A stretch of DNA of 64,000 nt from a virus: positions 1 through 64,000 of the IMG/VR virus record IMGVR_UViG_3300011114_001049; one strand, 5' to 3'. The notes under the pieces were generated by a model. It was given only the letters and a program-made list of their open reading frames with translations, was not told the DNA's origin and did not search any database. Numbering within the stretch: the first letter of the stretch is position 1; every line of letters starts with the position of its first letter. Positions 10,160 through 27,907 of this stretch are shown one piece after another. The position numbers and the translations under genes are program-made.

Positions 10160-10945
10160 TTTTCCTGGGGGATTTTTTTATGGCATAAGAGGGGTCACTT
10201 CCCAGGGTCTAGGGGTATTAAAGAATAGCGCGGCGCGCGCACCTGCGGGAGTATACACCACGGAGCTACCCCAGTGTACAAGAGGTCCAGGTGGAGACTC
10301 CCCTGGTCCAAGAGTTTTTGGCGCCCGGCGGGAGGTCACATCACCAGGGCCAGGGGCCCTATAGTTACAAAATTTAACTTGAAAATCACCTAGCTAGTCT
10401 ATCTAGCCTGTCTAGCCTGTCCTGACAGGCGCTCGGCCAGACGGTCCCAGGGGCCTCCAGGCAGGCCAGGGGCTCGGTACAGGCACTAATCTCGCCCAGG
10501 GCGCCGACTGCCGGTCCCCAGGGTAGGTTTCTACCGGCCTGCATGCGCTAGCCTGTCTAGTATAGCCTGTTGACCGGGTCTCTGTGGCGCAGATTGGCTA
10601 GTTATGTCTACTTGGATACCCTGGGGACCGGGTCTCTGACTAGGTAACCGCCTGCAGAGATCGGATAGAAGCTTATCATGCTTAGAAATCGGTAAATTAC
10701 CGGCGGTTGGGATTACGCTTAGCCTGATTCCTAGCACTGTTGCAGGTCTCAGATAAAGTTTAGCGATAAGTATACAACGGATCGGTATATTGGTTATATT
10801 TATAGATTGGTGAGTAGTGAAACCTGTGTATAGACCAGGTAAGATTATATCAGGGTGTTAAGGGTCTCTGCTGCAAGGAGACCTGTGCAGACTGCTAGGC
10901 GTTGGCTATGCTTCGGTATATTTTGGTATATAAGTTAACGCTTAG
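10160..10945. other. GC-rich non-coding region with short repeats near the switch of gene orientation
   Basis: No credible ORF; CTAGCCTGT, CCCAGGG/CCCTGGG and GGTCTC repeats; composition unlike flanking genes. Confidence 0.7.
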
Positions 10946-11449
10946 CTAGTTGCTACCGTGGTGTCGGTGTCTCTCTTCTCCTCCGTGTCTTGCCCTGTCT
11001 GATTCTCTATAGTGGTGACCAGATTGATTCCTATCGTAACCGCTAGACTTATACCAGGCAGCATCCTTTAGGTAGACTGCAGCGACTGCTGTAATTCCTA
11101 AAGCTAGTGCAACCCCGCCTGAGATAAACATTGCGGCTGGAACAATAGCTAGACCAGCAACGGGTCCGACTCTTGTTATTATCTTGTCTATGATTGACCT
11201 GACCTTGAATTCCTGATCGCTCATCTCGCTAGGATTAGCACCGAAGCTTTCTCCTTCTAGTTCTAGACTAACCAACTCTTCAAATCCTGCTGGATCCGAT
11301 TGCAGGTAATCTGCAAGTATCTCCTTTTCGCGAGGGCCTAAGTCTTCTACTGCAGACTGCGCAGTTATGGTTACTTCCTGTTCGGTTGCATCGTCTCCAT
11401 GGCGAGACTCGTTTATGAATTGAAGGAATGTTCGGGTAGCTAGTTTCAT
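10946..11449 (-). CDS. Hypothetical protein with hydrophobic hairpin (MKLATRTFLQFINE)
   Basis: ORF, late promoter at about 11471, VGPVAGLAIVPAAMFISGGVALALGITAVAAVY. Confidence 0.75.
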   Translation of the reverse strand: MKLATRTFLQFINESRHGDDATEQEVTITAQSAVEDLGPREKEILADYLQSDPAGFEELVSLELEGESFGANPSEMSDQEFKVRSIIDKIITRVGPVAGLAIVPAAMFISGGVALALGITAVAAVYLKDAAWYKSSGYDRNQSGHHYRESDRARHGGEERHRHHGSN

Positions 11450-11682
11450 TTGATCTTGTTTTTTATAGGTTTATTTATCATTACCTCTTTAAGAAATAAG
11501 CGCAGAGACCTGTACCTATTTTGCTATACTAGCTATTTTCCATAAGAGAAGCTGCTTCTTATTTTAAGTAAACCTCAATTATATTTATATCTTTGGCTCC
11601 GGTCTCGTAAATATATTTTAGGAAAAGCATTACCCATTTGGATATTATGGTTATATTTACTTATAACTTAAAACTTAAAGAA

Positions 11683-11817
11683 ATGAAAACTTTATTAAAC
11701 TTATTATTACAATTTATGGGATTAGCAATGGTTGCTTTTGGTAATAGCCTAGGTCTGTTACTACTTATACCAGCCTTCGTTCAATTGGTTAGAATGGACA
11801 TGGCTGAAGAGAGCTAA
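11683..11817 (+). CDS. Small hydrophobic early protein (44 aa)
   Basis: MKTLLNLLLQFMGLAMVAFG... between promoter 11652 and a terminator; below ORF-track cutoff. Confidence 0.7.
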   Translation: MKTLLNLLLQFMGLAMVAFGNSLGLLLLIPAFVQLVRMDMAEES

Positions 11818-11835
11818 CGGTCACTAATTTAGGAG

Positions 11836-11864
11836 AGGGTCGGCTTATGTCGGCCCTTTTTTTG
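11836..11864 (+). terminator. Rho-independent terminator
   Basis: AGGGTCGGC-TTAT-GTCGGCCCT + T run. Confidence 0.85.
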
Positions 11865-12104
11865 TGAGGTTAGTTTAGTAAACATCTGTTATATCTAATT
11901 GGCTATGGTCTCTTAGCTTCAGATTGGATACGTATTGGCCATGGTCTCTTAGCTTCAGAGACCCCGTCAACTAGATTAAGCTTGCTGGTTACTTGGAAAA
12001 ATAGATTGGATTTATAGGACGAGGTCTCTAAGATTTATTTCCTAAAACGCATTACCCATTTGGATATTATGGTTATATTTACTTATAACTTAAAAACAAT
12101 TAAC

Positions 12105-12350
12105 ATGAACTTAAAACAGGTATCACCTACAGTATTGCGCTCTAGGTTAAAGAACGAAGTAATTCAGTTTGCTTTTAAAAAGGTAGACGGCTCGTTGAGA
12201 ACGGCAGTCGGAACAACTAACTTAAGTACGATTCCAGTAGAGAGTCATCCTACTGGTAAGCGTGAAGCTTCTGAAAAACAGGTTAACTTCTTTGACTTGG
12301 AAAAGAAGGAATGGAGAAGCGTAAGTTCCTCACGTGAAATATACATCTGA
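12105..12350 (+). CDS. SH3 beta-barrel/WYL-like (DUF2693-type) small protein
   Basis: FAFKKVDGSLRTAVGTTN...FFDLEKKEWRS; paralog of 19322-19570. Confidence 0.75.
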   Translation: MNLKQVSPTVLRSRLKNEVIQFAFKKVDGSLRTAVGTTNLSTIPVESHPTGKREASEKQVNFFDLEKKEWRSVSSSREIYI

Positions 12351-12511
12351 TGAGCATTTTAAAATTCAGTGATGGAGTCCAGATAGATACTTCTGGGCCC
12401 ATCAGATCGCTCCACCTAGCCGACGGTTGGTATGTTGTAGGTAACGGTTTTTTAATTCCAGTAAAGGATGAGGTTGACGCTGAGCTCGTGATTAAGAAGC
12501 TTACGGGTTAG
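12350..12511 (+). CDS. Small hypothetical early protein (53 aa)
   Basis: MSILKFSDGVQIDTSG... coupled to the upstream gene by a TGATG overlap. Confidence 0.7.
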   Translation: MSILKFSDGVQIDTSGPIRSLHLADGWYVVGNGFLIPVKDEVDAELVIKKLTG

Positions 12512-12532
12512 TATAAATCGGGATAGTGTTAG

Positions 12533-12556
12533 GGGCAGGCGAGAGTCTGCCTTTTT
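12533..12556 (+). terminator. Rho-independent terminator
   Basis: GGGCAGGC-GAGA-GTCTGCCT + T run. Confidence 0.85.
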
Positions 12557-12760
12557 GGTTTAATGAAGTTTACTCCGTAGTAGGATCCACGCTGCAGGTT
12601 GGGGTCTCTAAGAATTCCACAGAGACCCGATCCACTGGATCTTTGCACCCGATTCCAGGAATCTTGCACTGTCTAGGTGGTCTCGCAAATATATTTTAGG
12701 AAACGCATTACGGATTGGAGTATTATAGTTATATTTACTTATAACTTAAAAACTTGATAT

Positions 12761-12940
12761 ATGAATAAGAGAAAACAAATTGAAAAGGCAGAAGCATTCC
12801 TAAAGCTTTATGGATTTACCCAAGAAGATTATGTAGTTTCCCTACAGGGTCCCACTATAATTCTCTCGATTAGTGGTAATCAAAAGATGGATGGAAACCT
12901 AAAGAACGAATTATTAAACATAGGTATGCTGATCCTGTAA
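12761..12940 (+). CDS. Small hypothetical early protein (59 aa), paralog of the 14830 N-terminus
   Basis: MNKRKQIEKAEAFLKLYGFTQEDYVVSLQGPT... Confidence 0.7.
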   Translation: MNKRKQIEKAEAFLKLYGFTQEDYVVSLQGPTIILSISGNQKMDGNLKNELLNIGMLIL

Positions 12941-12953
12941 TAAAAGTTTAAGT

Positions 12954-12979
12954 AAGCCGGTTTAAATACCGGCTTTTTT
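12954..12979 (+). terminator. Rho-independent terminator
   Basis: AAGCCGGT...ACCGGCTT + T run. Confidence 0.8.
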
Positions 12980-13157
12980 AGCACGTAACTTTGCAGGTCT
13001 CTGAAGTGTAGAGACCCCGTCTACTGGATTAATTGTTTTAACACTTGGAAAAATAGATTGGATTTATAGGACGAGGTCTCGCAAATATATTTTAGGAAAC
13101 GCATTACGGATTGGAGTATTATAGTTATATTTACTATATAACTTAAAAACAAACAAC

Positions 13158-13295
13158 ATGAAAAAAGATTTGGTTTTAATCGCGTTTCAGGTATGGGCAG
13201 CTGCACTAATGTTGATACTTGTAGTTTCAATCGGATATGCTGTTTGGTCGGTATGTACGGGTAACTATTCGGGCACCGCTTGCCGAGAGTTTTAG
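13158..13295 (+). CDS. Small single-TM early protein (45 aa)
   Basis: MKKDLVLIAFQVWAAALMLILVVSIGYAVW... after promoter 13126. Confidence 0.7.
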   Translation: MKKDLVLIAFQVWAAALMLILVVSIGYAVWSVCTGNYSGTACREF

Positions 13296-13369
13296 ATAAC
13301 TTCCATCGTGAGTAAGGGTCCTGCTGAAGGGCCCTTTTTAGTTTTAGGATAATTTAGTATAATAACAAT

Positions 13370-14167
13370 ATGAAAGAAGAAATATACGAGCAGATAGGGA
13401 GTCTGTGTAGAGCAAAAAACCTAGGCACAAGTTATCGTAACACAGATAAGCCAACCCCTCGTGTCCAGTGGATCGAGACTCTGCTCCAAAGATTAGGCAT
13501 AGCCTATGAGCTGGACGAATGGCACCGCACCAGTGGTCAGCGTTGCTGGAACATCTATATACACTCCGTAGTAGAGAGTCCGATCGTAATCATGGCTCAT
13601 CACGATATTGTAAATCCAGCGAGTGATAATGCGAACGATAACTCAGCTTCAATAATCAATGCGATTGCAACCAAACTGCAGAGACCAGAAGTCATGCTAG
13701 TCTTGACCGATGGAGAAGAAGTCGGCGGACTAGGCGCGGCTCGTTATGCAAAACTTGTTCTGAATAGATTATTACCTCGACCCGTTTGGGTACTCAATTT
13801 CGAACTTACGGGTCGAGGCGGTAAGAGCTGGTTTATCGGTGATAATATAGAAGGTCCGCTGAAGAGATATCTAGTAGAGGAGCATGGCGCGGAGCTAGTC
13901 AGTGTTCCGTTTAACGATTCAGTTATAATGCGGAGAGAAGGTATTGACTCTTGCGTAATTAACCCGTTGCCAAAGGACGAGCATGGAAAGTTTGAATTAT
14001 GGCGGTTAGGAGTATGTCATAGCCTAGCCGACACAGTCGATGAGGTCTCCACTGGGGAGATGAAGGAATTTGTTGAAGAGGTAGTTTTACCGATTATCGA
14101 CGGTTGGAAAAGACCAGCGGTTGGGCGATGGGCAAAGATCTTGAAGTGGTCCCGGTCTCGCAAATAA
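13370..14167 (+). CDS. M28-family zinc peptidase
   Basis: AHHD, ANDNSAS, TDGEEVG, NFE and C-terminal HSLADT metal-ligand motifs. Confidence 0.85.
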   Translation: MKEEIYEQIGSLCRAKNLGTSYRNTDKPTPRVQWIETLLQRLGIAYELDEWHRTSGQRCWNIYIHSVVESPIVIMAHHDIVNPASDNANDNSASIINAIATKLQRPEVMLVLTDGEEVGGLGAARYAKLVLNRLLPRPVWVLNFELTGRGGKSWFIGDNIEGPLKRYLVEEHGAELVSVPFNDSVIMRREGIDSCVINPLPKDEHGKFELWRLGVCHSLADTVDEVSTGEMKEFVEEVVLPIIDGWKRPAVGRWAKILKWSRSRK

Positions 14168-14237
14168 GTTTTGGGGAACGCATACAACGAATATCCAAAT
14201 TGGTTATATTTACTTTTAACTTAAAAACTTTAAAACT

Positions 14238-14576
14238 ATGAAACTAATAAAAGACCTAGGTCCAAGCTACTTCATCTTTGGTAACAAGGGTAACGTGTGG
14301 AGTAACACCGCACACGCCTACAAGTCAGGTAAAGGTAACCTATGTAATACCCCAGCCTTAAGTACTAATCACGCTAGAATCGAGGGAATAGATGAAGTAG
14401 GTTGTCCGCGCTGTCTAGAAGAGATCGCTAAACTTAGGGACTGTTCTATTTGTGGAGAGTCCTATGGAAGGTACGGTAACACTGCAGAACCAGTAAACGG
14501 CGGTAGATGTTGCGACTCATGCAACCTAGAGAAAGTAATTCCTGCAAGACTCATCGCAGCCTTCAATAGCAATTAA
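14238..14576 (+). CDS. Cys-rich zinc-finger hypothetical protein
   Basis: CPRC, CSIC...GRCCDSCN. Confidence 0.7.
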   Translation: MKLIKDLGPSYFIFGNKGNVWSNTAHAYKSGKGNLCNTPALSTNHARIEGIDEVGCPRCLEEIAKLRDCSICGESYGRYGNTAEPVNGGRCCDSCNLEKVIPARLIAAFNSN

Positions 14577-14829
14577 GTATTTTAAATATACATTTTACAA
14601 AGAAAAGGGTTCCAACAGTGAGCCCTTTTTTTGCGTCAAGTCACTCCGTAGTGTACACCTAGCAGGTCTGCACAGGTCTCTCAAGACCAGAGACCAGTAT
14701 GGATTAAACAACTATGCGGACACTTGCCTAACCAGTGCAGTTGACCTGTGTCTCCCAACTATATTTTATGAAGGGTATACAACAGATACCCTAATTGGTT
14801 ATATTTAACCTTAACTTAAAATACTTACT

Positions 14830-15243
14830 ATGAATAAGAAGATCGAAAGGATTGAAACACTTCTAGAAGATTATGGATTTACTAATAAAGATTATACTAT
14901 TTCCTTACCTGGTCCAACACTACTCTTTGCGAGGAGCGGACAGATTAAACTTAAAAAAATAAAGGTGTGTCGACTTATTTTTCCAGCCCGTCTAGACAGG
15001 GTAGGGTCTCATAGATATATTTTTAGTAATGTGTACAGCGCATTCCGAATTTGGTTATATTTACTTAATAACTTAAAAACAGAAAGTATGTATTCACTAG
15101 ACTGTAATTATTACACAAAGGAGTTCTCAACCATTGATGAGCTTTTGGGAGACGTTGTCACCAACGGAATGGACCCCAACTACGAGATCACACGCAACGG
15201 CCAACCTACTGGCGAGATGGCGATTGACCTGATCGAATTTTAA
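14830..15243 (+). CDS. Apparent fusion: truncated paralog of 12761 read through a promoter element into a 51-aa gene (15088-15243)
   Basis: Promoter element 15005-15080 lies inside the ORF; own ATG at 15088 (MYSLDCNYY...). Confidence 0.65.
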   Translation: MNKKIERIETLLEDYGFTNKDYTISLPGPTLLFARSGQIKLKKIKVCRLIFPARLDRVGSHRYIFSNVYSAFRIWLYLLNNLKTESMYSLDCNYYTKEFSTIDELLGDVVTNGMDPNYEITRNGQPTGEMAIDLIEF

Positions 15244-15413
15244 TTTCCTGTATTATCCAGGCGCGAGGGCAGGTGGAGACGCTTGCCCTTTTTCTTGTAC
15301 TTGATTCCGGGAATCTTGTCTAGTTGTGCGGGTCTCTAAGATTTATTTTCGTAAACGCATACAACGTATTTGGATAATGGTTATATTTACTATATAACTT
15401 AAAAACAAACAGT

Positions 15414-15632
15414 ATGAAAAATCTTAGAGAAAAGTATGAAAATGCCAGAGCTCTCTTAAAAGCCGGCAAACGTGAAGAGGCAAGCGCTCTCCTTAATTTT
15501 GGAATCTACCAATTGGCTAGCGCTACTTTAGAAGGAATTCCTCAAGATCAAGTCGTAGAGGGAGCAACTGTCGATCGCTGGAAGGAACGCTTCTGGTTCG
15601 AGTTAGAAGCCAACGACCTGTTGGAAGGGTAG
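15414..15632 (+). CDS. Hypothetical early protein
   Basis: 72 aa between promoter 15382 and terminator at about 15649-15673. Confidence 0.75.
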   Translation: MKNLREKYENARALLKAGKREEASALLNFGIYQLASATLEGIPQDQVVEGATVDRWKERFWFELEANDLLEG

Positions 15633-15728
15633 TCGATAGGACTCCAGTAAGGCTCGAGAAATCGGGCCTTTTTTGTAAACCTATTTAGAGACATGAGTAT
15701 AATAGGAATATAAACTTATATTTAAAAA

Positions 15729-16019
15729 ATGGACTCTCGATTTGAAGAACTATATCAGGAACTTATGGAAGTTGAGGTAGACAAGAAAGGGTCTCCCATC
15801 TTTTACTGGCGGCTCGACGAGGAGTACTGTGTCAGGTGGGAGGAATCACTGGTTTATTATAACGATCGCTGGGATTTACTCCGTAGAGAAGCTTTAAGTC
15901 ACCTTAACGAGCTTGACGAATTAGAGCGTCGTTTCTTAGAGACAGAAGACTACGAACGATGCAGCACGATACGAGACCTTCGCGAAAAGTTAAAGTCTGA
16001 ATATGCAGCCTGGTGCTAA
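15729..16019 (+). CDS. Hypothetical protein with UVR (UvrB/C-like) coiled-coil motif
   Basis: FLETEDYERCSTIRD. Confidence 0.65.
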   Translation: MDSRFEELYQELMEVEVDKKGSPIFYWRLDEEYCVRWEESLVYYNDRWDLLRREALSHLNELDELERRFLETEDYERCSTIRDLREKLKSEYAAWC

Positions 16020-16159
16020 GGGTCTCCCAACTATATTTTCCTAGTTTTGAATTTTGTATTAAGAAAAAAGGGTTGCAAAGCTCTCGCAAAAAAAGTAGAT
16101 AAAAATTGTTATTTGTTATATTTTTTAGTTATATTTAACTATAACTAAAACGCAGAAAG

Positions 16160-16366
16160 ATGGACAAGAAAGAAAAAGATACAGATATTAAAATCATGGC
16201 AGAGTGTCGACCGTGGTCATCTCTCACCTGTGGCTCGCTCAGGGCAATGATGACTATATGTAAGAATCGTGGCTTAAAATATTATGATTCGGGAAAAATA
16301 GCTAAATGGGTAAATAACAACGAGCTCTCGATACTCCTGGAACGGGAGCTCGCGTCTCGCAACTAG
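16160..16366 (+). CDS. Hypothetical early protein
   Basis: 68 aa after promoter 16130. Confidence 0.65.
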   Translation: MDKKEKDTDIKIMAECRPWSSLTCGSLRAMMTICKNRGLKYYDSGKIAKWVNNNELSILLERELASRN

Positions 16367-16368
16367 TG

Positions 16369-16530
16369 ATGAAAAAGATAGAGGCAACTATGCAGGAAAT
16401 ATGGGCGGCAACTCGACCTGTAGTACAGAAGAACAAGAAGAAGTATTCACGTAAAAAAAAGAAAGAAGATGATTGGAAAGAAGAACCTATTAAGAACTCA
16501 GTCAGAGACAGAGGGCATGACCAAGATTAG
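16369..16530 (+). CDS. Small basic protein (53 aa)
   Basis: MKKIEATMQEIWAATRPVVQKNKKKYSRKKK...; below ORF-track cutoff. Confidence 0.55.
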   Translation: MKKIEATMQEIWAATRPVVQKNKKKYSRKKKKEDDWKEEPIKNSVRDRGHDQD

Positions 16531-16708
16531 TGGCGTTTGTGTTTTTACTAATGAGTGGTATGAATGTGAAATACCAACAGATGGACTTGAGAGTTGGCTC
16601 AACGGTCAGCCTATACAGACCGCGCTGCCTACAGTATCTCGCGATGTCCGTGAATTCCTGATCTCAGGAATATCTCCTACCGGTTGGGACAAGACTTTCG
16701 GTAAGTAA
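16517..16708 (+). CDS. Hypothetical protein
   Basis: MTKISGVCVFT...REFLISGISP; start reassigned. Confidence 0.65.
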   Translation: MTKISGVCVFTNEWYECEIPTDGLESWLNGQPIQTALPTVSRDVREFLISGISPTGWDKTFGK

Positions 16709-16959
16709 TAGTTTGTTTTAAGTTAGAGACACTGGGTCGGCGTAAGCTGGCCCTTTGTTGTTTTACTCCGTAGTAAACCCCTGCCCGCCTAGGCCAGGTA
16801 GAGACCCCTTCACCAGGCTGCAGGATCCCAATTTGCGTATAAATATTTTTTAAAATCAAGGTTGGATTTAGAGGACGCTGTCTCGCAAAAAAGTTTTAAC
16901 AGAATTTTCAGGTGTCAATTATTTTGGTTATATTTACTTATAACTTAAAAACTTAAAAT

Positions 16960-17148
16960 ATGAACTCAATGTCAACAGGAGAAATCAGAGCAGAGCTCGT
17001 AGAATTAATTAACGGCGGTATATTAAACGTACCTAACCTTGTTAAATTCTTTAAGACGAATCGTCCAGGTGCTAACCTAGTAACGGTTAAGGAAGAAGCA
17101 AAAGAGATAGTCGCAGAGGTAAAAATGGTAATAAAAAGAGGATACTAA
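16960..17148 (+). CDS. Hypothetical early protein
   Basis: 62 aa after promoter 16929. Confidence 0.7.
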   Translation: MNSMSTGEIRAELVELINGGILNVPNLVKFFKTNRPGANLVTVKEEAKEIVAEVKMVIKRGY

Positions 17149-17151
17149 ATC

Positions 17152-17523
17152 ATGACAAGAGAACAAAGAAACAAGGCAATCCAAAGATTGGAGCTATTAG
17201 AATTAAGGTTAGATGGACTTAGTGCATTATCATATAATGTATCAGACAAAGGTGGCATAGAGCTCTTAAGCGTCATCGACGAGACAAAGGCAGAGCTTGA
17301 CCTTTTAGAAAAAACTCTAGCAACCAAATGGGAGTTCCTTTTCAATTTCAAAAGCGGTGGCTGGAATTCAGAAGTAGCATTTACCCGAGAGGAAGCTATC
17401 GAGCAGGCAATTGCCAAATATGGTCAACCTTCTGAAGACCATAAAGTATTAAACATCGATGTCACCTCGTTTAGAGTGTCAACGACCCATGACAAGGCAG
17501 GTTTACTATCCCTATTTCATTAA
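17152..17523 (+). CDS. Hypothetical early protein
   Basis: 123 aa followed by terminator at about 17540-17566. Confidence 0.7.
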   Translation: MTREQRNKAIQRLELLELRLDGLSALSYNVSDKGGIELLSVIDETKAELDLLEKTLATKWEFLFNFKSGGWNSEVAFTREEAIEQAIAKYGQPSEDHKVLNIDVTSFRVSTTHDKAGLLSLFH

Positions 17524-17735
17524 GTAATAAGTATATAAGAAGAGCGAGAATTATCTCGCTTTTTTTATGACCAGTGGAAAGGCGTCTCCCAAAATTATTA
17601 GAGACCGGTGTAGTCCAGCAGATTCCTTGGAAAAAACAGACCGGCTCCAGTGGATGGAGTCTCTGAAAAACTTTTCAACAGGATTGTTAAGTATGAAAAA
17701 GATTGGTTATATTTACTTATACTTAAAAACTAAAC

Positions 17736-18175: not shown

Positions 18176-18182
18176 ACACGCT

Positions 18183-20268: not shown

Positions 20269-20511
20269 ATGACTAAAGAAGAATTTAAAGCAGGCGTTCT
20301 ATTCCTAATCAACGTAAAGAACGATTTCCAATTTGATTATAATAGCCCAGGATATTTAGGATTCCTCAACTGTGGAGAGGATATCACAGACGATCCAGGA
20401 TTTATGATAGTTGTCAATAATCAGGAAGAGTTTGAGCCAATCTTGAGTGGACTGAGGCTTACCACAGAAGAAGGTATCAACGCAGAAGAAACAGTATTCA
20501 TTCTAATCTAA
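20269..20511 (+). CDS. Acidic small early protein
   Basis: 80 aa after promoter 20237. Confidence 0.7.
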   Translation: MTKEEFKAGVLFLINVKNDFQFDYNSPGYLGFLNCGEDITDDPGFMIVVNNQEEFEPILSGLRLTTEEGINAEETVFILI

Positions 20512-20521
20512 AACAGGACCC

Positions 20522-20728
20522 ATGGAAGAAAAAATCTTAGATACCCTAAAGAAACTTAAAAGAGAGAAGAAGTACATCGCTCTTCAATTACATCCAGCGA
20601 TTGGCCACACAACTATTGAGAAGGAAGGAAATACTCTTCGTATCAATGAAGGAAGAGACGGCAAATTCGAAGGGGTAAGCGAGTCTTTCTATGACGAGAT
20701 GGTAAACCAGTTTGATTCACGAAACTAA
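20522..20728 (+). CDS. Hypothetical protein
   Basis: 68-aa ORF in operon. Confidence 0.65.
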   Translation: MEEKILDTLKKLKREKKYIALQLHPAIGHTTIEKEGNTLRINEGRDGKFEGVSESFYDEMVNQFDSRN

Positions 20729-20733
20729 ACGCT

Positions 20734-20889
20734 ATGGACTTTTACAAATGTAAACAATCAGGAGACGTATTCACTGAGGACGAGATGTTAGACGAAGTAG
20801 ATGGGGATGATAACTTAGATTCTTTCTACCTCATCGGCGATTTTGAGACACATGAAGAAGCAGAACAATTTCTAAAAACACTAAGATGA
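20734..20889 (+). CDS. Very acidic small protein (51 aa)
   Basis: MDFYKCKQSGDVFTEDEMLDEVDGDDNLDSF...; fills the gap, ATGA coupling to the next gene. Confidence 0.65.
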   Translation: MDFYKCKQSGDVFTEDEMLDEVDGDDNLDSFYLIGDFETHEEAEQFLKTLR

Positions 20890-21119
20890 CACAAGAACAA
20901 GCACAAGTAGTAGCACAAATCTTAGAGAGATTTGATTTTGATAAGGTACTTAAACACATGCAATCAGTAGATTGGAAGTGGTTCGATGAGGTGCCTGATA
21001 TGGATGATATTAAAGGTACCGCAACTCGACTTCTAGTCGAAGCTCAAATGGACCCGCAGGATGTTGTGTCAATGGGAACAGGCGGATTCAGAGTTTATAA
21101 ACTTCCTTGGGGATTATAG
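20886..21119 (+). CDS. Hypothetical protein (FDFDKV...GTGGF)
   Basis: 77 aa; frame continues 11 codons beyond the TAG. Confidence 0.7.
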   Translation: MTQEQAQVVAQILERFDFDKVLKHMQSVDWKWFDEVPDMDDIKGTATRLLVEAQMDPQDVVSMGTGGFRVYKLPWGL

Positions 21120-21252
21120 CTTACTTTCTCCATCCAACGAAGTGGAAGCTTCTAGCCTGGCAGCGGGCCGCGTCTCTTAACTTTTTATCCCGCCCAATTG
21201 TCAAGATTAGAAAAGATTGGTTATATTTACTTATAACTTAAAGACCCATAAG

Positions 21253-21678
21253 ATGTTAACACTTAAACTAGGGAATAATCTACACATATGTAATAATCAA
21301 GTTATTAGTTATTACACTGTAGTTGCGACCATTGCTGCTGACCAGATCATAGTACACGGTAAATGGAGTAGGACTACTACTAAACACCTAAACGAGGTCG
21401 CTAGAGTCACGAGGTCGTCATTAGTGCAAGAGAAGAGAGTATGCGATACTGACTGGTTACCGTATGGTGTAAATGTCAAGTTAACTGACTCGCTCTCAGT
21501 CAAGAGCTCACTGCTTATTGCTAGTAAATTAAACCATACGTTCGGCATGATTGGCGCGATTGCTTCTAATTGGGACAAGATTAACAAGAAGGATAAGAAT
21601 CTAATCTATGAAGAGCTTAGAGCAGACGACGAGTTTAGGATGATGATTCAATTGGTGGAAGATAACTTTCCGCTGTGA
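21253..21678 (+). CDS. Hypothetical early protein (SYYTVVA...WSRTTTKH)
   Basis: Start reassigned downstream of promoter 21222. Confidence 0.7.
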   Translation: MLTLKLGNNLHICNNQVISYYTVVATIAADQIIVHGKWSRTTTKHLNEVARVTRSSLVQEKRVCDTDWLPYGVNVKLTDSLSVKSSLLIASKLNHTFGMIGAIASNWDKINKKDKNLIYEELRADDEFRMMIQLVEDNFPL

Positions 21679-21763
21679 GCGGTCTCGCAAAAAAGTTTGG
21701 GACCAGATTGTACTTGTATTAGATAATTGGTTATATTTACAGTGTATAAAAAAAATAAAAGTT

Positions 21764-21985
21764 ATGAAAATTAAATTTTTGAAAGATTGTTATATTGAAG
21801 TATGTGTTGGTTTTGATAGTGAAGAAGAACCAATAATGGAAGAGGAGAAAATAGTTGAAGGCGAAATGTTTGAAGTAGAAAAAATTGTATATAACATTGT
21901 TGAAACAGAATTTATCCAAGTTCAATTTGAGGATGGTTCAGTTGGATTTATTAATAAAGATTTATTTGAAGTAATAGAGGAATAA
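21764..21985 (+). CDS. Very acidic small early protein
   Basis: 73 aa, Glu-rich, AT-rich coding sequence. Confidence 0.7.
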   Translation: MKIKFLKDCYIEVCVGFDSEEEPIMEEEKIVEGEMFEVEKIVYNIVETEFIQVQFEDGSVGFINKDLFEVIEE

Positions 21986-22107
21986 ACCTATTAAAAAGGC
22001 TTTCGTATATTAGCGTATAAAGAAAGAAGAATAAAAAGTTATTGACAGGATTGTACATTGTCGAAACAAATAGTTATATTTACTTATAACTTAAAAACAT
22101 AAAGATT

Positions 22108-22572
22108 ATGAAAACAACACACACGATTTGGGGCATACTCGATGGAGACGGCCCACTAAAAGGAATTAGATTTGGAGCAAGTACTAATGCACTTAACTTC
22201 GAAGTATCACAAGACACAGACGACGGTACCTATCCTAGGCTCTGTGATTATATGCGAGATATCAACGCATTAGAGAACGAAGGGGCAAGTCACTTCCTAA
22301 ATAGACTTACCCGAAAGAAGAACAAGTTGAAGATAGCATACGAAGGCGTGACTATTATTAGAGATTCTAAGTGGAGCACCGATGCTGTACTTGAATTCAA
22401 GGAACCGATCGATGTAGTATTAGGTAAAGTCGGCGAGAGTCTCATCATAGGGAAGGTGCAGCGTATCAAAGGAGAGTTCGATCACGACTACTTCTGGACC
22501 AAGAACGGTCGCCAAGACAAGGTAGCAAACGGTTATGAGATATGGTTCAAGATAGAAGAATACCTAGCCTAG
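22108..22572 (+). CDS. Hypothetical early protein
   Basis: 154 aa after promoter 22075. Confidence 0.75.
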   Translation: MKTTHTIWGILDGDGPLKGIRFGASTNALNFEVSQDTDDGTYPRLCDYMRDINALENEGASHFLNRLTRKKNKLKIAYEGVTIIRDSKWSTDAVLEFKEPIDVVLGKVGESLIIGKVQRIKGEFDHDYFWTKNGRQDKVANGYEIWFKIEEYLA

Positions 22573-22650
22573 TGCACAGGTCTCGCAAAAAATGTTGACC
22601 AGATTGTACCAGTATAAAAGAATTGGTTATATTTACTTATACAACAATTG

Positions 22651-24156
22651 ATGACTATGGAAAAGATACAGATAAAGCAGATTCCAGCCGAGTACGTGGC
22701 AAGAGCAAAAGGAACCGTCTACGATAGAAAGAGATTAGCCGGCCTGCGTGAACTACCTGAAATAGTAGTTAGTCGTTTATCGCAAGACCGGTCGCTTACT
22801 GTTTTAAAGGAGGTTGCTCTTCGTACTGACCTTACACTAGAACAGGTGAAGACACTAAACTCGCCGTCTAATATAGTAAACATGTACGAGCTTAGACGAA
22901 GCCTATTTCGTAATCATAGCATAAGTCACGATTGTGTAAAGTACCTGATTAGAGAGGAAGGTTTAGTTGAATCTGTAATCTTAGCTAACCCAAACATAAA
23001 GGCTAAAGAGTTTATTGGGATCGTGAAGGAGCAGATTGAATTAGAAAGAAGTCGTTACTCCGTAGATAGAATAATAAAGTCAGCGTTCTCTAATCAAGGG
23101 ATAGGTAATACTGTACTCATTGCTCTTTTAGAATTTTTGAAAGATTGTTATCACATAAAGTCAGAGCACAATTATGAAAGTCTAGTTCAAATACTCGTTA
23201 CTCACAACGATTCGCTTACTCCTCGGTCGATTGAATGGTTGTGGAAGCATGCAAATACTCGAATAAAGAAGAGAGGTGGTATCCAGTCTAAGCCACTTAT
23301 TAAATGTATAACAGCTCACCATAACTGTAGTGATGAACTCATTAATAAAATCATATTAGGATTAGAGGATGAGTACGTTGGCGACCTGTTTGGGTATGCG
23401 CAAGTAGAGATTAGAGAGAGTTATGTTGCAAGTAGAGAAGTCGTAAATTTACTGGCTCCACTATGTATCAATGGAACTGACCAAGTGATTAAGAATACTT
23501 CCATATTTATTGCTAATCACATGGGAGAGGTTGAGCTTACTGACAGCATAACACAGCAGCTTATCTCAATTAGAGATAAAGAAGTTCAACTTGCTTTGCT
23601 AAAGAATGGAGTCCTTGCTGGCACTAGCCAAGAACGTGAAGCAGTTGATATTATAGTATCGTCTACTGACGAATTGGAGAGAGAGGAATGGAGGTACCTA
23701 GAAAATTCTAATTTAATTACAGAGGATCACCTGATAGCCCTGACTTCACATCGTTCTTGGAGAGTTCGGCAGCTTGTAGCTGAGTCTACTCGAGTTCCTT
23801 TAGCTCAACTTGAAGTACTTGCAAATGATGGCGACTCAGACGTAGTCAGAAGTGCCACGCAGAATGGGAGATACCACCTGGTAAAACACTCCGTAGAGTA
23901 TCAAAGAAGAGCAGAGTTAAACTGTGTAGCTATGGCAAGAATACATAGGGCATGTAGCGAAACGATTGAGGCAATCGCGGCTGACTCCTATGCTAAAGAA
24001 TACACCGGCTTTTCAGAATTCGGCAAAGCGATAGAACTGTTAGCCTCGCCTGAATTCTCAACTTTCATTGAAACATTCAGCTATAAAGATCGCAGAGAAC
24101 TAATGAAAGATGGCATTGACCTAGCTACTTTAAATCTTCTTAGTCAATTTTTTTAA
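22651..24156 (+). CDS. Alpha-solenoid (LRV/HEAT-like) protein
   Basis: ~500 aa; SWRVRQLVAESTRVPLAQLEVLANDGDSDVVRSA. Confidence 0.7.
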   Translation: MTMEKIQIKQIPAEYVARAKGTVYDRKRLAGLRELPEIVVSRLSQDRSLTVLKEVALRTDLTLEQVKTLNSPSNIVNMYELRRSLFRNHSISHDCVKYLIREEGLVESVILANPNIKAKEFIGIVKEQIELERSRYSVDRIIKSAFSNQGIGNTVLIALLEFLKDCYHIKSEHNYESLVQILVTHNDSLTPRSIEWLWKHANTRIKKRGGIQSKPLIKCITAHHNCSDELINKIILGLEDEYVGDLFGYAQVEIRESYVASREVVNLLAPLCINGTDQVIKNTSIFIANHMGEVELTDSITQQLISIRDKEVQLALLKNGVLAGTSQEREAVDIIVSSTDELEREEWRYLENSNLITEDHLIALTSHRSWRVRQLVAESTRVPLAQLEVLANDGDSDVVRSATQNGRYHLVKHSVEYQRRAELNCVAMARIHRACSETIEAIAADSYAKEYTGFSEFGKAIELLASPEFSTFIETFSYKDRRELMKDGIDLATLNLLSQFF

Positions 24157-24229
24157 CAGGATTGTCAAGTATAGAAAAGATTGATTATATTTACTAAGAA
24201 CAAATGGTATAACTTGAGTATAAGATAGT

Positions 24230-24538
24230 ATGCAACCTACTGATAATCAAATGAATGATCGAAGTATTCCCTGCTTTAGCTTGGGAGCCATGGATGTAAG
24301 TTCATTTACGACAACTCATCGTGCACTTATCTCAAGCGCAGTAGAGTCGGCAGTATACTGGGCAGTCTCGAATAAATTAGAAGAAGTAGAAGTATTTGAA
24401 ATAAAGGAATTGGACGTCGTCTTCTCATTAAAGAAGGAGGAATTTAGGACAGCATTAAACGGCTGTATTGAATACTCAATATCAATAGAAGATTACGAAA
24501 AGTGCGTAGCTATTAATAAACTAAAAACTAATTTATGA
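24230..24538 (+). CDS. Hypothetical protein with C-terminal UVR-like motif
   Basis: YSISIEDYEKCVAINKL. Confidence 0.65.
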   Translation: MQPTDNQMNDRSIPCFSLGAMDVSSFTTTHRALISSAVESAVYWAVSNKLEEVEVFEIKELDVVFSLKKEEFRTALNGCIEYSISIEDYEKCVAINKLKTNL

Positions 24539-24762
24539 GTAAGCAGAGAGCATTAGGATTTAAAAAGATTGCATGTAAAAAATGTAACGAACTCGTAGAC
24601 AAGGTAGACGAGCAGGCAGAATCAATAACCTGTAGCAAGTGTGTTCAGACTGAACTACGCGGATACCCTGATATCACTCGTGAAGAGTGGTTTAGATTAG
24701 ATACGATACGTAAAGAGAAAGAGCTTGAATTAGAAGAGTCTGCTTCTGGCAAAGAAGAATAA
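24535..24762 (+). CDS. Zinc-ribbon hypothetical protein
   Basis: CKKC...CSKC. Confidence 0.7.
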   Translation: MSKQRALGFKKIACKKCNELVDKVDEQAESITCSKCVQTELRGYPDITREEWFRLDTIRKEKELELEESASGKEE

Positions 24763-24837
24763 AAAGTTATTGACAGCATTGTACATTGTCGAAACAAATA
24801 GTTATATTTACTACATAAACCAATAAAACTAAAGATC

Positions 24838-25557
24838 ATGGGCTTTGAAACATCAGAAGGACTTCCAAAATACTTTCGTGAAATAAGAAAGAGCGGAGGT
24901 GTAAGTAAAGAAAGAGAGAAGGTATTGGCTATTGAGATAGCTAACGGTAGCACAACGGCAGTCCGCGAACTTGCTGAAAGCAATCTATTACTTGTAGCTA
25001 GAATTGCAAACCGCCATAAGGGGCAAGGGGTTCCCATAGACGACTTGATACAGGAAGGTAATATTGGACTACTTGAAGCTGCTCGTAACTTTCGACCAAA
25101 TCACGAAAGAGGTTTCGTACCCTATGCCAGCCTGTGGATTCGTAAGTATATTAACGAGACTGTTGCTAAGACTGGCCGAGTTGTCCGCTTACCCCACAAT
25201 CAGGAGTATGAGATCTATAAAGCAAAGATGAGAGGCGAAGATCCAGACGTGCCTACTCGTGTAAGCCTAGACAAGCCGATCAGCGAAGACAGCGAATACA
25301 CGTTAGCCGACCTGATCTTGGTGTCACGGCCTGAAGTTGAGATAGAGATTGAGCTGGAAGAGATTAAGTTCAAGGTAGGTATCGCAGTAAAATCCTTGAA
25401 GACCCGTGACCGTGAGATAATATTTGATTATTTTGGAATCGACCGTGAGTACTCCTTAAACGCGAAAGAGATCGCCGAGAAGCACTCAATGACAAACGTT
25501 AGAATAAGTCAGATCGTTCGCTCCTCACTAGAAAAAATGAAGAGCTCAATGGTTTGA
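24838..25557 (+). CDS. Sigma-70 family RNA polymerase sigma factor (RpoD-like, no region 1.1)
   Basis: Region 2 SNLLLVARIA...DDLIQEGNIGLLEAARNF...YASLWIRKYI; region 3 VSLDKP; region 4 LKTRDREII...EIAEKHSMTNVRISQI. Confidence 0.9.
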   Translation: MGFETSEGLPKYFREIRKSGGVSKEREKVLAIEIANGSTTAVRELAESNLLLVARIANRHKGQGVPIDDLIQEGNIGLLEAARNFRPNHERGFVPYASLWIRKYINETVAKTGRVVRLPHNQEYEIYKAKMRGEDPDVPTRVSLDKPISEDSEYTLADLILVSRPEVEIEIELEEIKFKVGIAVKSLKTRDREIIFDYFGIDREYSLNAKEIAEKHSMTNVRISQIVRSSLEKMKSSMV

Positions 25558-25612
25558 TCCATAGCTGTAGAGAGTCTCAGCTTTTAATAATAAACATTTA
25601 CTCCGTAGTAAG

Positions 25613-25960
25613 ATGAAGGATATATTAGCATTTAATGGAGAAGACGAGGTCTTCTTAACCGAATTAGAACTAGAAGACTTAGTTAGGAACAAAACTAAAG
25701 AATTCGTAGAATTATTCCAGTATACCGCAGTCTATCTAGACGTGATAAACGAATTAGAGAAAGACCTAGGTAGTGCACTGTGCTCGATCAACTCTTCTCC
25801 AATGTCAATCGAACGTAAGAAGAGACTTGATGAAGGTCACTATGTCTTGATTGAGTTATTGGTAGAGCACCTGGGTTTTGATATAGCTGGGATAATAATT
25901 GCAGATACTTGTAACGCAATAAACTTAGATAAAATAAGAAGCAAAAATGGCAAAAGATAA
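25613..25960 (+). CDS. Hypothetical protein
   Basis: 115-aa ORF in operon. Confidence 0.65.
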   Translation: MKDILAFNGEDEVFLTELELEDLVRNKTKEFVELFQYTAVYLDVINELEKDLGSALCSINSSPMSIERKKRLDEGHYVLIELLVEHLGFDIAGIIIADTCNAINLDKIRSKNGKR

Positions 25961-26207
25961 TGCACTAGATCGTATACTTAGGGAGATGAGTGAGATCGAC
26001 AGGGTCGTCTGTATGGAAGTAAAGTACCTTGCAATCATGCATGAGCAGGACAAACCCGTCTCGACCGAGCAAGAAAGCAGAGAGCTAGTTGGCTCGATTG
26101 TCGACCTCATCGAATTCTTTGAACCTCAAGAAAGATACGAAGAGTGCGCACAACTAGTAAAGATACTTAATAAGATAAAGAAGCAATGCGGCCAGAAGTA
26201 TACGTAG
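25947..26207 (+). CDS. Hypothetical protein with UVR-like motif
   Basis: FFEPQERYEECAQLVKI. Confidence 0.65.
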   Translation: MAKDNALDRILREMSEIDRVVCMEVKYLAIMHEQDKPVSTEQESRELVGSIVDLIEFFEPQERYEECAQLVKILNKIKKQCGQKYT

Positions 26208-26437
26208 TTATCGGTAACGGGGAAGAAGGAGAGTGGGAAGAGTCTCTGCAGAAATCTTTGGGTGTCTGTAATAATGCTAAGAAAGCATATGATATTGCTT
26301 TATTTCTAGGCCAGATATCTAGACCTGACTTGGGTTATCGTAAAGTATTAGAGACCCTAAACAAGAAAGGTGCAGTCACTGTCAAGCAGAGAGAAGGAGA
26401 GCAGGCTGCAACAATAGTAAAAGTAAAAAAATATTAG
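26186..26437 (+). CDS. Hypothetical protein
   Basis: 83-aa ORF in operon. Confidence 0.6.
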   Translation: MRPEVYVVIGNGEEGEWEESLQKSLGVCNNAKKAYDIALFLGQISRPDLGYRKVLETLNKKGAVTVKQREGEQAATIVKVKKY

Positions 26438-26439
26438 CC

Positions 26440-26601
26440 ATGACCGATCGAGAAAAACTAAAAGCAGTCGATGATTATATTAGAGAGAGTAAAGAGCTCT
26501 ATTCGCAGGCAATACACGATACCGGCAACGAGATGGAAAAAACTATGTGGGCAAGCATTATAACTGCGCTCGACGGTGTTGGAGAGATTCTAGAAAGGTA
26601 A
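26440..26601 (+). CDS. Small hypothetical protein (53 aa)
   Basis: MTDREKLKAVDDY...; stop abuts GGTCTC at 26603. Confidence 0.6.
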   Translation: MTDREKLKAVDDYIRESKELYSQAIHDTGNEMEKTMWASIITALDGVGEILER

Positions 26602-26686
26602 GGGTCTCGCAAAAGTTTTTCCGCAGGATTGTCAAGATTAGGGAATTATAGTTATATTTACCTATAACCAATTAAACTTAATAAAG

Positions 26687-26791
26687 ATGGATAAGGAAAC
26701 TTGTAAACACGAAAAAACATACGTAGCAGTACGCCACGTATCAGGGATTAAGCTAGTAAAATGTTCTCATTGCGGTAAAGTAATTAATTAA
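26687..26791 (+). CDS. Tiny zinc-ribbon protein (34 aa)
   Basis: MDKETCKHEK...KCSHCGKVIN after promoter 26653. Confidence 0.55.
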   Translation: MDKETCKHEKTYVAVRHVSGIKLVKCSHCGKVIN

Positions 26792-26797
26792 AGAGAT

Positions 26798-27190
26798 ATG
26801 AAAGCAGAATTTAACAGACACAATCGAGATTTTAATTGTAGTTTTACAATTGAGTTCAACGTAAAGAATCCTACCATACCTTTGACCGATAGACACATCG
26901 AGCTCATGGAGTCAGAATGGCTGCATGGAGACCTAACAAATAATTATTCAACTGATTGCTTTGAAGAGATAATGGAGAGTAATTATTCTTTTATTGAAGA
27001 CTGGAGTTTTGCCGGTCGCAGCAACGGCTGGTGGGTTCTAATTTGCAAAGGTTCAGAGTCACAGGTTAGAGCTAGTTCTCTTCGCCGAATCGAAAGAATT
27101 GTTGAAGACTATTTTAGCAAGTACGGCAAAATGATAATTAATAATTTTGAAATTTTTATAAAGGAGAGAGAAGAGGCAGAGATCTCTTAA
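26798..27190 (+). CDS. Hypothetical protein (GRSNGW motif)
   Basis: 130-aa ORF. Confidence 0.7.
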   Translation: MKAEFNRHNRDFNCSFTIEFNVKNPTIPLTDRHIELMESEWLHGDLTNNYSTDCFEEIMESNYSFIEDWSFAGRSNGWWVLICKGSESQVRASSLRRIERIVEDYFSKYGKMIINNFEIFIKEREEAEIS

Positions 27191-27266
27191 TTTTTATTTG
27201 ACCCAATTGTCAAGATTAAAAAGAAATTATTATATTTACTTATAACCAATTAAAAACTGAACGCAT

Positions 27267-27692
27267 ATGTCAACTAGAAGCAGAATAGGAATGGAGTTTA
27301 CCGACGAGAACGGTACTCGACTAGTTAAATCAATCTACTGTCACTTCGACGGATATCCGGAAGGAGTCGGGCAGAAACTACAGAACTTTTTTCTAGATCG
27401 GGAAAAGGTCGACGCACTCGTCTCGCTGGGAGATATTTCTTTTCTTGAGAAGGAGATCGTAGCGAAGGGCAATCACTCATTTGACCAGCCAGAAAGAGGA
27501 GTGACTGTTGCCTACCATCGAGACCGTGGAGAAGATTACTGTGCACCGCGAATCGATGCAGGAGTAGATGCCTTCTTTGAATCAGATTTTGAAGAGTACG
27601 GTTATGTCTTTAGCGAAGAAGGAGAGTGGCTAATTGGAGGAGTCGAAGATATCGCCATCCCTTTACCATACGCCATTTCGCTGAGAGAATAA
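27267..27692 (+). CDS. Phage hypothetical protein (MSTRSRIG...IYCHFDGYP)
   Basis: Recognisable recurrent phage motif; after promoter 27231; terminator 27747-27772. Confidence 0.75.
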   Translation: MSTRSRIGMEFTDENGTRLVKSIYCHFDGYPEGVGQKLQNFFLDREKVDALVSLGDISFLEKEIVAKGNHSFDQPERGVTVAYHRDRGEDYCAPRIDAGVDAFFESDFEEYGYVFSEEGEWLIGGVEDIAIPLPYAISLRE

Positions 27693-27907
27693 GCTTAGGT
27701 CACGTCCAAGGCTAAGGCGCCCAACCCTTGGGCTGAACCATAAGAGAACCCGACTAGCTATCGGGTTTTTTTGTGTGAGTCAACTTGGAAGCTAAAACCG
27801 GTGTGCATGGGTCTCTGGTTAAATGTGCAAAAAATAGTTCGCCAGATTGTCATAGTTAAAAGGAATTAGTTATATTTACTTATACTAACCAACTAAAAAC
27901 TTTTATT

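Follow-up and report, generated by a model that had tools for sequence, protein, structure and literature searches.

An oriented, helically phased GTCTC element upstream of the repeated promoters of a putative early gene array in a T4-type phage

The first 64 kb (the window) of the 100,274-bp IMG/VR viral contig IMGVR_UViG_3300011114_001049 (CheckV completeness ~36%), which belongs to a phage with a T4-type portal (Portal_T4 match), carry an array of 25 co-oriented, repeated promoter units. Most of these have the pentanucleotide GTCTC, hereafter the cap, upstream of the promoter core, always in one orientation and at distances that differ by steps of 10 bp. Because of this strict orientation and phasing, a protein-binding regulatory site is the best reading of the cap. 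We see about an even chance that it is the distal module of a composite early promoter, with a geometry like that of class I activator promoters and read by a clade-specific factor. We know of no account of how large Bacteroidota phages start their programme; the phased distal element, apparently undescribed, and its replacement by another word in a sister clade are the new points here.

The core word TATATTTA occurs 39 times in the window (7.4 ± 2.9 in shuffles) and GGTCTC 54 times (19.6 ± 4.3 in shuffles), both being concentrated on the + strand between 10.7 and 27.9 kb. The 25 plus-strand cores run from 10795 to 27871, and the rest of the contig, outside the array, holds no promoter of this type. 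The array announced in the original prediction is therefore real, with 25 cores rather than about 24. All twenty GGTCTC coordinates given there were recovered: 14 are exact GGTCTC, four are NGTCTC (T at 14749 and 16879, A at 17658, C at 21171) and two carry a mismatch inside GTCTC (GCTCTC at 16080, GATCTC at 27181). What was described as a conserved hexamer is thus a recurrent site of which the 5-mer GTCTC is invariant and the first G varies. A good fit to the extended consensus GTGCACAGGTCTCGCAAA was found only at 19292 and 22628. Exact GTCTC lies upstream of 19 of the 25 cores and a one-mismatch variant upstream of two more; the remaining four (15717, 22075, 24186 and 24803) have no cap. From the start of GTCTC to the T of TATATTTA, the distance (register) is 50 bp at 12 promoters, 49 bp at five, 48 bp at one and 60 bp at one (cap at 27811), and GTCTC was found at no other offset between 37 and 107 bp before the 25 cores.

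Relatives of this phage (G000) were found by a search with the core only, the query containing no GTCTC. In the contigs retrieved, nGTCTC again stood upstream of nearly every core, and the element is conserved in about 10 related IMG/VR contigs. When five arrays were pooled, GTCTC was present at 83 of 103 cores, at 48 (1), 49 (5), 50 (42), 51 (18), 59 (1), 60 (12), 61 (2) or 70 bp (2), and never at 36–47, 52–58, 62–69 or 71–99 bp. The sigma-gene promoters of three relatives carry it at 71, 71 and 60 bp. If caps beyond 51 bp were placed uniformly in 52–85, the chance of all 17 falling at 59–61 or 70 would be (4/34)^17, or ~3e-6 when only six independent lineages are counted. The reverse complement GAGAC occurs four times in the same span, at scattered offsets, so that the cap is strictly oriented. 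The additional 10 or 20 bp of the longer registers consist of A/T-tract blocks of diverse sequences. Among orthologous genes of four relatives, -33 regions and registers differ (50 vs 60) and GTCTC is kept in all, which argues for selection on the word and its helical face, not for inheritance alone. The orthologues of unit 19, uncapped in G000, have GTCTC in four relatives, at register 50. The logo of the cap in this clade reads cGnGTCTCYnGAcTTTT, and upstream of it no further universal motif was detected beyond terminator k-mers.

As judged by anchoring the 25 plus-strand sites, the unit to which the cap belongs shows conservation between roughly -56 and +23, counted from the first T of TATATTTA. 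It consists of GGTCTC, an A/T tract (AAAAAAGTTTT or similar), a -33 region, TTGGT-TATATTTA and CTTATAACTTAAAAAC, with an ATG 20–36 nt past the box; one to three A/T-tract blocks of ~10 bp each fill the space between cap and -33 region. Downstream of the -7 box TAnnTTTA come a conserved start region (CTTATAAC), an A-rich leader (TTAAAAAC) and the ATG. Leaders are 20–36 nt long and contain no GGAGG or Shine-Dalgarno sequence. Bacteroidota hosts have an unusual sigma factor and also lack a Shine-Dalgarno sequence. All 25 cores match the TAnnTTTG sigma-A box (PMC6847099) at seven of eight positions, and in Flavobacterium this -7 box extends from -12 to -5 with transcripts starting 4–5 nt past it (PMC6847099, PMC9723704). 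The cores thus resemble Bacteroidota-type promoters, and their grammar suggests use by host Flavobacteriales sigma-A RNA polymerase, which is favoured because sister clades use TATATTTG as well as TATATTTA. The resemblance to Bacteroidota sigma-A promoters proposed earlier holds for the TTG, the TAnnTTT and the A-rich leader and breaks down at -5, where A replaces G. The array would then be an early module transcribed by host polymerase, a picture drawn from the host-type grammar, the lack of such promoters elsewhere in the contig and the small genes almost all without known family.

Two families of -33 regions were distinguished. Family B (16130–27871) has GGATTGTCA, with its TTG 21 bp before the box, within the 19–21 bp usual for the TTG near -33 of Bacteroidota sigma-A promoters, and family A (10795–15382) has CGCATTAC or GCATACA in its place. 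Seen as sub-families, the first nine units carry ACGCATTAC or GCATACAACG and later units GGATTGTCA(AG). In the relatives these -33 classes recur together with TTCTACC and AAAAGTTTTTT types, and orthologous genes carry a mixture of them. These sub-families may mark different temporal classes or different -33 readers. In some promoters of two sister-clade loci (L144 and L147), the -33 region and the -7 box are separated by a terminator hairpin, this fused terminator-promoter having the form GACCCCAGA...TTTGGGGT, a T-run and then TATATTTA.

The cap is specific to these phages. In five Crocinitomicaceae-type genomes, GTCTC-N44-46-TAHHTTTG was found 11 times, against 19 for a reversed control; as GTCTC is not enriched upstream of -7 boxes in these candidate hosts, it was rejected as a host promoter element there. 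Unrelated phages with the same core have no GTCTC cap. In a sister clade gathered through the sigma factor (~40% identical), the same core is capped with GTTAATAAC, at 37 (8), 47 (18), 57–59 (21) and 69 bp (1). Two further clades have no cap and conserve GCCCCGATTTT or ATTTTTTCC in the -33 region instead. On this comparison of contigs, the phased cap is a lineage-specific add-on with at least two ‘dialects’. Its replacement by clade is as expected for a site read by a lineage-specific protein, and the earlier suggestion of a phage-specific element is borne out.

Measured to the first base of the -7 box, the cap lies ~4.7 helical turns away; from its centre to the predicted transcript start there are ~5.7 turns. 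With the box T at -12 (Flavobacterium numbering), its centres fall near -60, -70 and -80, in line with the class I spacing (near -61, -71 and -82) as far as the predicted transcript start is right. At class I promoters, CRP is centred at -61.5, -71.5 or -82.5 and the C-terminal domain of the polymerase alpha subunit occupies the adjacent A/T DNA. The likeness extends to the strict helical periodicity and to the A/T tract between site and -33/-35 region. The cap differs in being a single asymmetric word of 5–11 bp, where CRP has a 22-bp palindrome, and in serving ~20 phage promoters and not a host regulon. In the composite-promoter reading, host sigma-A polymerase would recognise the core, the cap would be an oriented docking site dependent on the helix face, and a protein bound there would touch the alpha C-terminal domain on the adjacent A/T tract. 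The reader would be a clade-specific protein, most likely made or delivered by the phage, which would switch all early promoters together. Of the functions first proposed, an activator or repressor site is the one best supported by orientation, phasing, conservation through promoter swaps and clade replacement; protein binding itself is suggested by this geometry, and as to the sign, activation seems somewhat likelier than shut-off. The phi29 protein p4, bound upstream of A2c/A3, contacts the alpha C-terminal domain and activates or represses depending on the promoter. A site at -60 to -80 could likewise serve either function, with the difference that the p4 site is an inverted repeat at few promoters and the cap a single oriented word on ~20. 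In T4, early promoters are controlled via the alpha subunit (Alt, ModA), and middle promoters have a MotA box at -30. As in T4, phage-specific conserved upstream positions set the phage promoters apart from those of the host, and an injected or early phage protein would, as we propose, retune the host polymerase for a promoter class. In T4, however, the upstream features are A/T tracts at about -42 and -52 and the MotA box takes the place of the -35 element; no MotA-like domain was found here.

A more specific version appears possible, though we hold it with less confidence than the composite promoter itself. The cap would be an address label in an undescribed control of early transcription in T4-like phages of Flavobacteriales. 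A phage-made or virion-delivered protein would dock there, on one side of the helix, steering host polymerase at all early promoters, and the sister-clade GTTAATAAC would be the label for a factor of its own. That protein might be a domesticated helix-turn-helix protein of the IS607 type, encoded just past the array. In this homologue YTRVGG stands in the position of the nucleophile motif YxRVS; Gly takes the place of the Ser in this phage, relatives have Pro, Ala or Val, and no clade retains the Ser. The gene is conserved and syntenic in all clades, ~5–9 kb past the sigma gene, and its product appears to be a domesticated DNA-binding protein without catalytic activity. Short repeated motifs are bound by IS607 transposases via their N-terminal domain (PMC6188088). 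As a cap-binding protein it is nevertheless a weak candidate, because it is found in all four clades, including the two without a cap, and so does not track the cap. The only other recognisable sequence-specific DNA-binding protein of the contig is the sigma factor encoded in the array, which is RpoD/RpoS-like and at most 33% identical to the nearest cultured phage sigma.

Several points weigh against a phage-read distal module of host-type early promoters. The promoters are paralogues and orthologues within and between genomes, so that the pooled counts overstate independence, and the 10-bp steps could come partly from insertion of whole A/T-tract blocks, not from selection on the face of the cap. 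An invariant core of 5 bp is short for an autonomous binding site. Scans of ~50 ORFs (open reading frames) with Pfam, PHROGs and NCBIfam, on a contig that covers ~36% of the genome, returned only the sigma factor and the catalytically dead IS607-type protein, and six-frame searches of the contig for MotA (PF09158, PF09114) and HTH_3 domains returned nothing. As for the core, all 25 copies have A at -5, a position that is a near-invariant G in Flavobacterium sigma-A promoters, and family-B promoters can also be read as TTGTCA-N18-TATATT. For these two reasons the core could be read by the phage RpoD/RpoS-like sigma, and immediate-early timing of the genes does not follow. Finally, no RNA run is listed among the public sequencing runs that contain the phage.

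Comparison of cassette order and content among relatives, a check proposed at the outset, showed that the order differs between G000 and two relatives (G001 and G004). Compared with both, gene order is scrambled in the first half of the array and collinear in the second, except for the block 20269–21119. Nucleotide homology of this translocated block runs from 20191, the end of GTCTC, to 21233, inside the next core/leader, and an extra ORF (20522–20728) is inserted in it. The promoter at 13126 is a mosaic that agrees base for base with 12074 over the 38 bp upstream of GGTCTC and with 12730 over the 45 bp downstream. Some cassette genes share 65–71% identity with those of clades in which the sigma is only ~40% identical, and in contigs from other metagenomes different cassettes are joined inside promoter sequence. 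Among such joints, 21242 to 26798 (side 74), 12099 to 12692 (side 55) and 19320 to 22108 (two studies) were accepted, as support only; many others, with sides of only 21–31 nt in repeated promoters, were treated as repeat or assembly artefacts. On these alignments the shuffling is real. With 25 copies of the ~85-bp unit present, homologous recombination among them would reshuffle, duplicate and exchange cassettes, the cap being the upstream edge of the portable promoter. The proposal that GTCTC is the crossover point of a cassette system thus stands as regards shuffled order, the mosaic at 13126 and the start of the block. As the other end of the translocated block lies in the next promoter core, with further joints elsewhere in the promoter, GTCTC is better described as the upstream edge of a portable promoter module than as ‘the’ crossover point.

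In this the array resembles the PeSL (promoter-early stem-loop) cassettes in hyperplastic regions of the T4-type phages RB49/phi1, T4/PST and KVP40/nt-1 (PMC2839356, PMC4122927). Both concern T4-like phages with many composite units of ~100 bp, made of a strong host-type early promoter, an A/T-rich block, a translation start and often a terminator. In both, small orphan genes in a plastic region are bordered by the units, and order and content vary between relatives by indels, replacements and reordering, with joints inside repeats. The present array departs from PeSL in its Bacteroidota -33/-7 grammar without Shine-Dalgarno sequence, in the stem-loop, which stands apart from the promoter (terminators occur at ~10 of 25 junctions, 20–70 bp away), and in the oriented 5-mer at phased distances, which has no counterpart in PeSL descriptions. 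We regard it as a Bacteroidota form of the PeSL-type early cassettes, extended by a phased distal element. The host-takeover module of Bacillus phage SPO1 is likewise a dense series of small genes in one direction, with a strong early promoter in front of each and terminators at many; a conserved distal element or shuffling between relatives is not known to have been described there.

Canonical hairpins with a T-run were found at ~10 of the 25 junctions, 20–70 bp upstream of the cap. The original view that every unit has its own terminator therefore applies to these junctions, the others having no canonical terminator. From T-run to cap the distance varies over ~20–45 bp and some caps directly follow a stop codon; it is therefore the promoter and not the terminator to which the cap belongs. 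Folding likewise led to rejection of GTCTC as a 3′ terminator arm, since upstream pairing appeared in 28 of 83 folds only, weakly and with inconsistent partners. Apart from the caps, GTCTCT...AGAGAC palindromes lie 124–160 bp before the next core in G000, G001, G002, G004 and L132. Three directly follow a canonical terminator, in the spacer, and their inner positions tolerate G-U pairs. The relatives have a GAATTC centre and N12 spacing, G000 mostly N9. These palindromes may be DNA sites for the cap reader or RNA hairpins.

Other readings of the cap have to be weighed against the composite promoter. An improbable one holds that host polymerase (its alpha C-terminal domains or another surface) or DNA curvature reads the cap together with the T/A tracts, as an UP-like element peculiar to these phages. 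E. coli UP-element subsites also function at helically phased positions, the A/T tracts between cap and -33 are each about one helical turn and set the register by their number, and early promoters must fire before any phage protein exists. GTCTC itself is nevertheless GC-containing and sequence-specific, unlike UP elements, which are A/T-rich stretches between -40 and -60 touched by the alpha C-terminal domain; the adjoining tract (AAAAAAGTTTT or CTTTT) is what fits, and judging from the sequence the cap sits beside an UP-like tract, not inside it. Nor is GTCTC enriched in the candidate hosts, and phages with the same core that are uncapped or carry GTTAATAAC are hard to square with one conserved host surface. 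Somewhat less probable again is that GTCTC is primarily a recombination anchor, a preferred crossover or recognition point of an integron-like or site-specific kind. The changed cassette order with one translocated block, the change of parent exactly at GGTCTC in the 13126 mosaic, the homology starting at GTCTC, the exchange of genes across clades and of cassettes inside promoters, and an IS607-type gene adjoining the array all agree with this. In common with integron attC arrays, the small cassettes stand in tandem, their junction is conserved and a recombinase-like gene lies next to the array. A crossover site would, however, not be expected to show phasing and a fixed distance to the -7 box, other joints lie in core or leader, and homologous crossovers resolve in conserved blocks anyway. 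Each cassette has its own promoter, unlike in integrons, and the cap shows no structure of the attC type (an imperfect palindrome, R''-L''/L'-R' with GTTRRRY). A tyrosine integrase is absent, the only recombinase-like gene being that of the adjoining serine-type homologue, in which the nucleophile is missing.

The cap might also mark the end of the preceding cassette, belonging to a terminator, serving as insulator or roadblock, or signalling RNA processing or stability. We think this less likely still, for the cap forms the 3′ arm of a predicted hairpin in so few cases, terminator distance varies where core distance is fixed, and several caps follow a stop codon without any terminator; in its favour are the GTCTCT...AGAGAC hairpins with G-U-tolerant inner stems in four of the genomes (G000, G001, G002, G004) and, in relatives, a T-run ~5 nt after the cap. 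A methylation- or restriction-related mark, acting as an epigenetic timer or nicking site, is very improbable. GTCTC is identical to a known type IIS site (BsmAI/BsaI-type recognition sequence) and is enriched two- to threefold, not avoided (105 vs 43 expected in 20 kb of G001, GGTCTC in the window as given above). No methyltransferase or nuclease appeared among the scanned ORFs, from about a third of the genome; moreover, the sister clade has an unrelated word at the same phased positions and the fixed promoter geometry would be left unexplained. Just as little probability attaches to a functionless hitch-hiker inherited with a duplicated promoter, an idea already disfavoured: all units are indeed paralogues, yet GTCTC stays invariant as its neighbours and the whole -33 region diverge or swap, with only 10-bp indels tolerated.

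Coordinates of the array, its promoter units, terminators, palindromes and candidate reader genes
Feature	Position	Strand	Remarks
Whole putative early array	10745–27907	+	25 co-oriented promoter units, each before one or a few small ORFs, mostly without known family
Unit 1	10746–10802	+	GGTCTC 49 bp before core 10795; atypical leader; no ORF downstream; GTCTC palindrome next
Unit 2	11602–11682	+	Cap GGTCTC, register 50; core 11652; ATG 11683
Unit 3	12024–12104	+	Cap GGTCTC, register 50; core 12074; ATG 12105 of WYL_2 protein
Unit 4	12680–12760	+	Cap GGTCTC, register 50; core 12730; ATG 12761
Unit 5	13076–13157	+	Core 13126; mosaic of unit 3 and unit 4 sequence
Unit 6	14155–14237	+	Cap GGTCTC, register 50; core 14205; ATG 14238
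Unit 7	14750–14829	+	Cap TGTCTC, register 50; core 14800; ATG 14830
Unit 8	15006–15087	+	Cap GGTCTC, register 50; core 15056; ATG 15088
Unit 9	15332–15413	+	Cap GGTCTC, register 50; core 15382; ATG 15414
Core 15717, atypical unit	15690–15728	+	Without cap; leader 4 nt
Unit 11	16081–16159	+	Degenerate cap GCTCTC; core 16130; ATG 16160
Unit 12	16880–16959	+	Cap TGTCTC, register 49; core 16929; ATG 16960
Unit 13	17659–17735	+	Cap AGTCTC, register 49; core 17708; ATG 17736
Unit 14	18587–18667	+	Cap GGTCTC, register 50; core 18637; ATG 18668
Unit 15	19242–19321	+	Cap GGTCTC, register 50; core 19292; ATG 19322 of second WYL_2 protein
Unit 16	20188–20268	+	Cap GGTCTC, register 49; translocated-block homology starts at 20191
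Unit 17	21172–21252	+	Cap CGTCTC, register 50; core 21222; translocated-block homology stops at 21233
Unit 18	21682–21763	+	Cap GGTCTC, register 50; core 21732; ATG 21764
Unit 19	22048–22107	+	Uncapped; core 22075; 98% identical to unit 22 over 62 nt
Unit 20	22580–22650	+	Cap GGTCTC, register 48; core 22628; precedes 501-aa ORF
Unit 21	24159–24229	+	Uncapped; core 24186
Unit 22	24776–24837	+	Uncapped (GTCTG at 65 bp); core 24803; precedes sigma-factor gene
Unit 23	26604–26686	+	Cap GGTCTC, register 49; core 26653; ATG 26687
Unit 24	27182–27266	+	Degenerate cap GATCTC; core 27231; ATG 27267
Unit 25	27811–27907	+	Cap GGTCTC, 60-bp register, additional A-tract block; core 27871; ATG 27908
Intrinsic terminator (hairpin + T-run)	12531–12554	+	Closes cassette
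Intrinsic terminator	12956–12979	+	GTCTC palindrome next; sequence read directly
Intrinsic terminator	13314–13336	+	
Intrinsic terminator	15265–15290	+	
Intrinsic terminator	15649–15670	+	
Intrinsic terminator	16734–16753	+	96% repeat of terminator at 20124
Palindromic hairpin with + strand T-run (terminator)	17543–17566	+	GTCTC palindrome next
Intrinsic terminator	18521–18544	+	
Intrinsic terminator	20122–20145	+	
Intrinsic terminator	27747–27772	+	
GGTCTC-N9-GAGACC palindrome or hairpin	10863–10883		
GGTCTC-N9-GAGACC palindrome	11943–11963		130 bp before core 12074
GGTCTC-N13-GAGACC palindrome	12603–12627		126 bp before core 12730, downstream of terminator
GGTCTC-N9-GAGACC palindrome	12996–13016		129 bp before core 13126, downstream of terminator
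GGTCTC-N9-GAGACC palindrome	14675–14695		124 bp before core 14800
CGTCTC-N12-GAGACC palindrome	17583–17606		124 bp before core 17708, downstream of terminator
Sigma-70-family factor, regions 2 and 4	24838–25557	+	Inside array; core gene of wider phage family
IS607-type serine-recombinase homologue, N-terminal helix-turn-helix	30131–30823	-	Just past array; nucleophile Ser replaced by Gly

Pfam scans of the ~37 array ORFs gave matches only to WYL_2 (twice), Peptidase_M28 and the sigma factor. The two WYL_2 proteins (12105–12350 and 19322–19570, E ~1e-17) are small paralogues of the Sm-like SH3-barrel type in separate cassettes, and a 265-aa ORF of the array (13370–14167) matches Peptidase_M28 (3e-9), with a sub-threshold match to TIR_2. 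Where a minus-strand module and the array diverge, 10380–10945 is GC-rich and without a long ORF; it contains repeated CTAGCCTGTCTAG and GACCGGGTCTCTG words, and unit 1 points into this stretch, which may be a small RNA or origin-like region. The polar 9-mer ACTCCGTAG has 14 exact copies in the window, on the + strand only (12572–31305), often between terminator and cap, though within ORFs and past the array too. In sister clades ACTCCCTAG takes its place, at 10–13 copies per 20 kb, so that the word is conserved family-wide with a clade-specific base (relatives L129, L135, L143–L150). Sense-strand GAGAC is ~2.6-fold commoner in the early arrays than elsewhere in the contig (L029 of G001; window 10–30 kb), an excess that goes beyond the contribution of the palindromes and lies mostly within ORFs; it may reflect codon or amino-acid usage or a function. 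As a late promoter, TATAAATA was discarded: the bare 8-mer is not enriched, with 13 copies per 100 kb against ~17 expected from a composition estimate.

A freshwater Flavobacteriales host is likely, because the phage carries a Crocinitomicaceae-like auxiliary gene and its DNA was detected in river and lake metagenomes (public runs). The assignment rests on that gene, a GFO/IDH/MocA oxidoreductase (60795–61823, - strand) with 75–87% identity to Crocinitomicaceae genes (Fluviicola, Lishizhenia and others). The same gene is 96–97% identical to contigs binned into three metagenome-assembled genomes, which are probably mis-binned phage DNA. A megablast of the array against GenBank phages gave no match, and an Rfam scan of the window found two tRNAs and nothing else.

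Taken together, the array offers a complete early-promoter grammar in ~100 natural variants. The helical phasing makes a clear prediction, a 5-bp shift of the cap being expected to act unlike a 10-bp shift, and since two clades have different caps, phylogenetic profiling could lead to the factor. For use in Flavobacteriales, the units could serve directly as strong promoters and leaders. If the cap is indeed an address label, co-infecting relatives would run orthogonal early programmes. The shuffling itself extends the PeSL mode of accessory-gene exchange to T4-like phages outside Proteobacteria and cyanobacteria.

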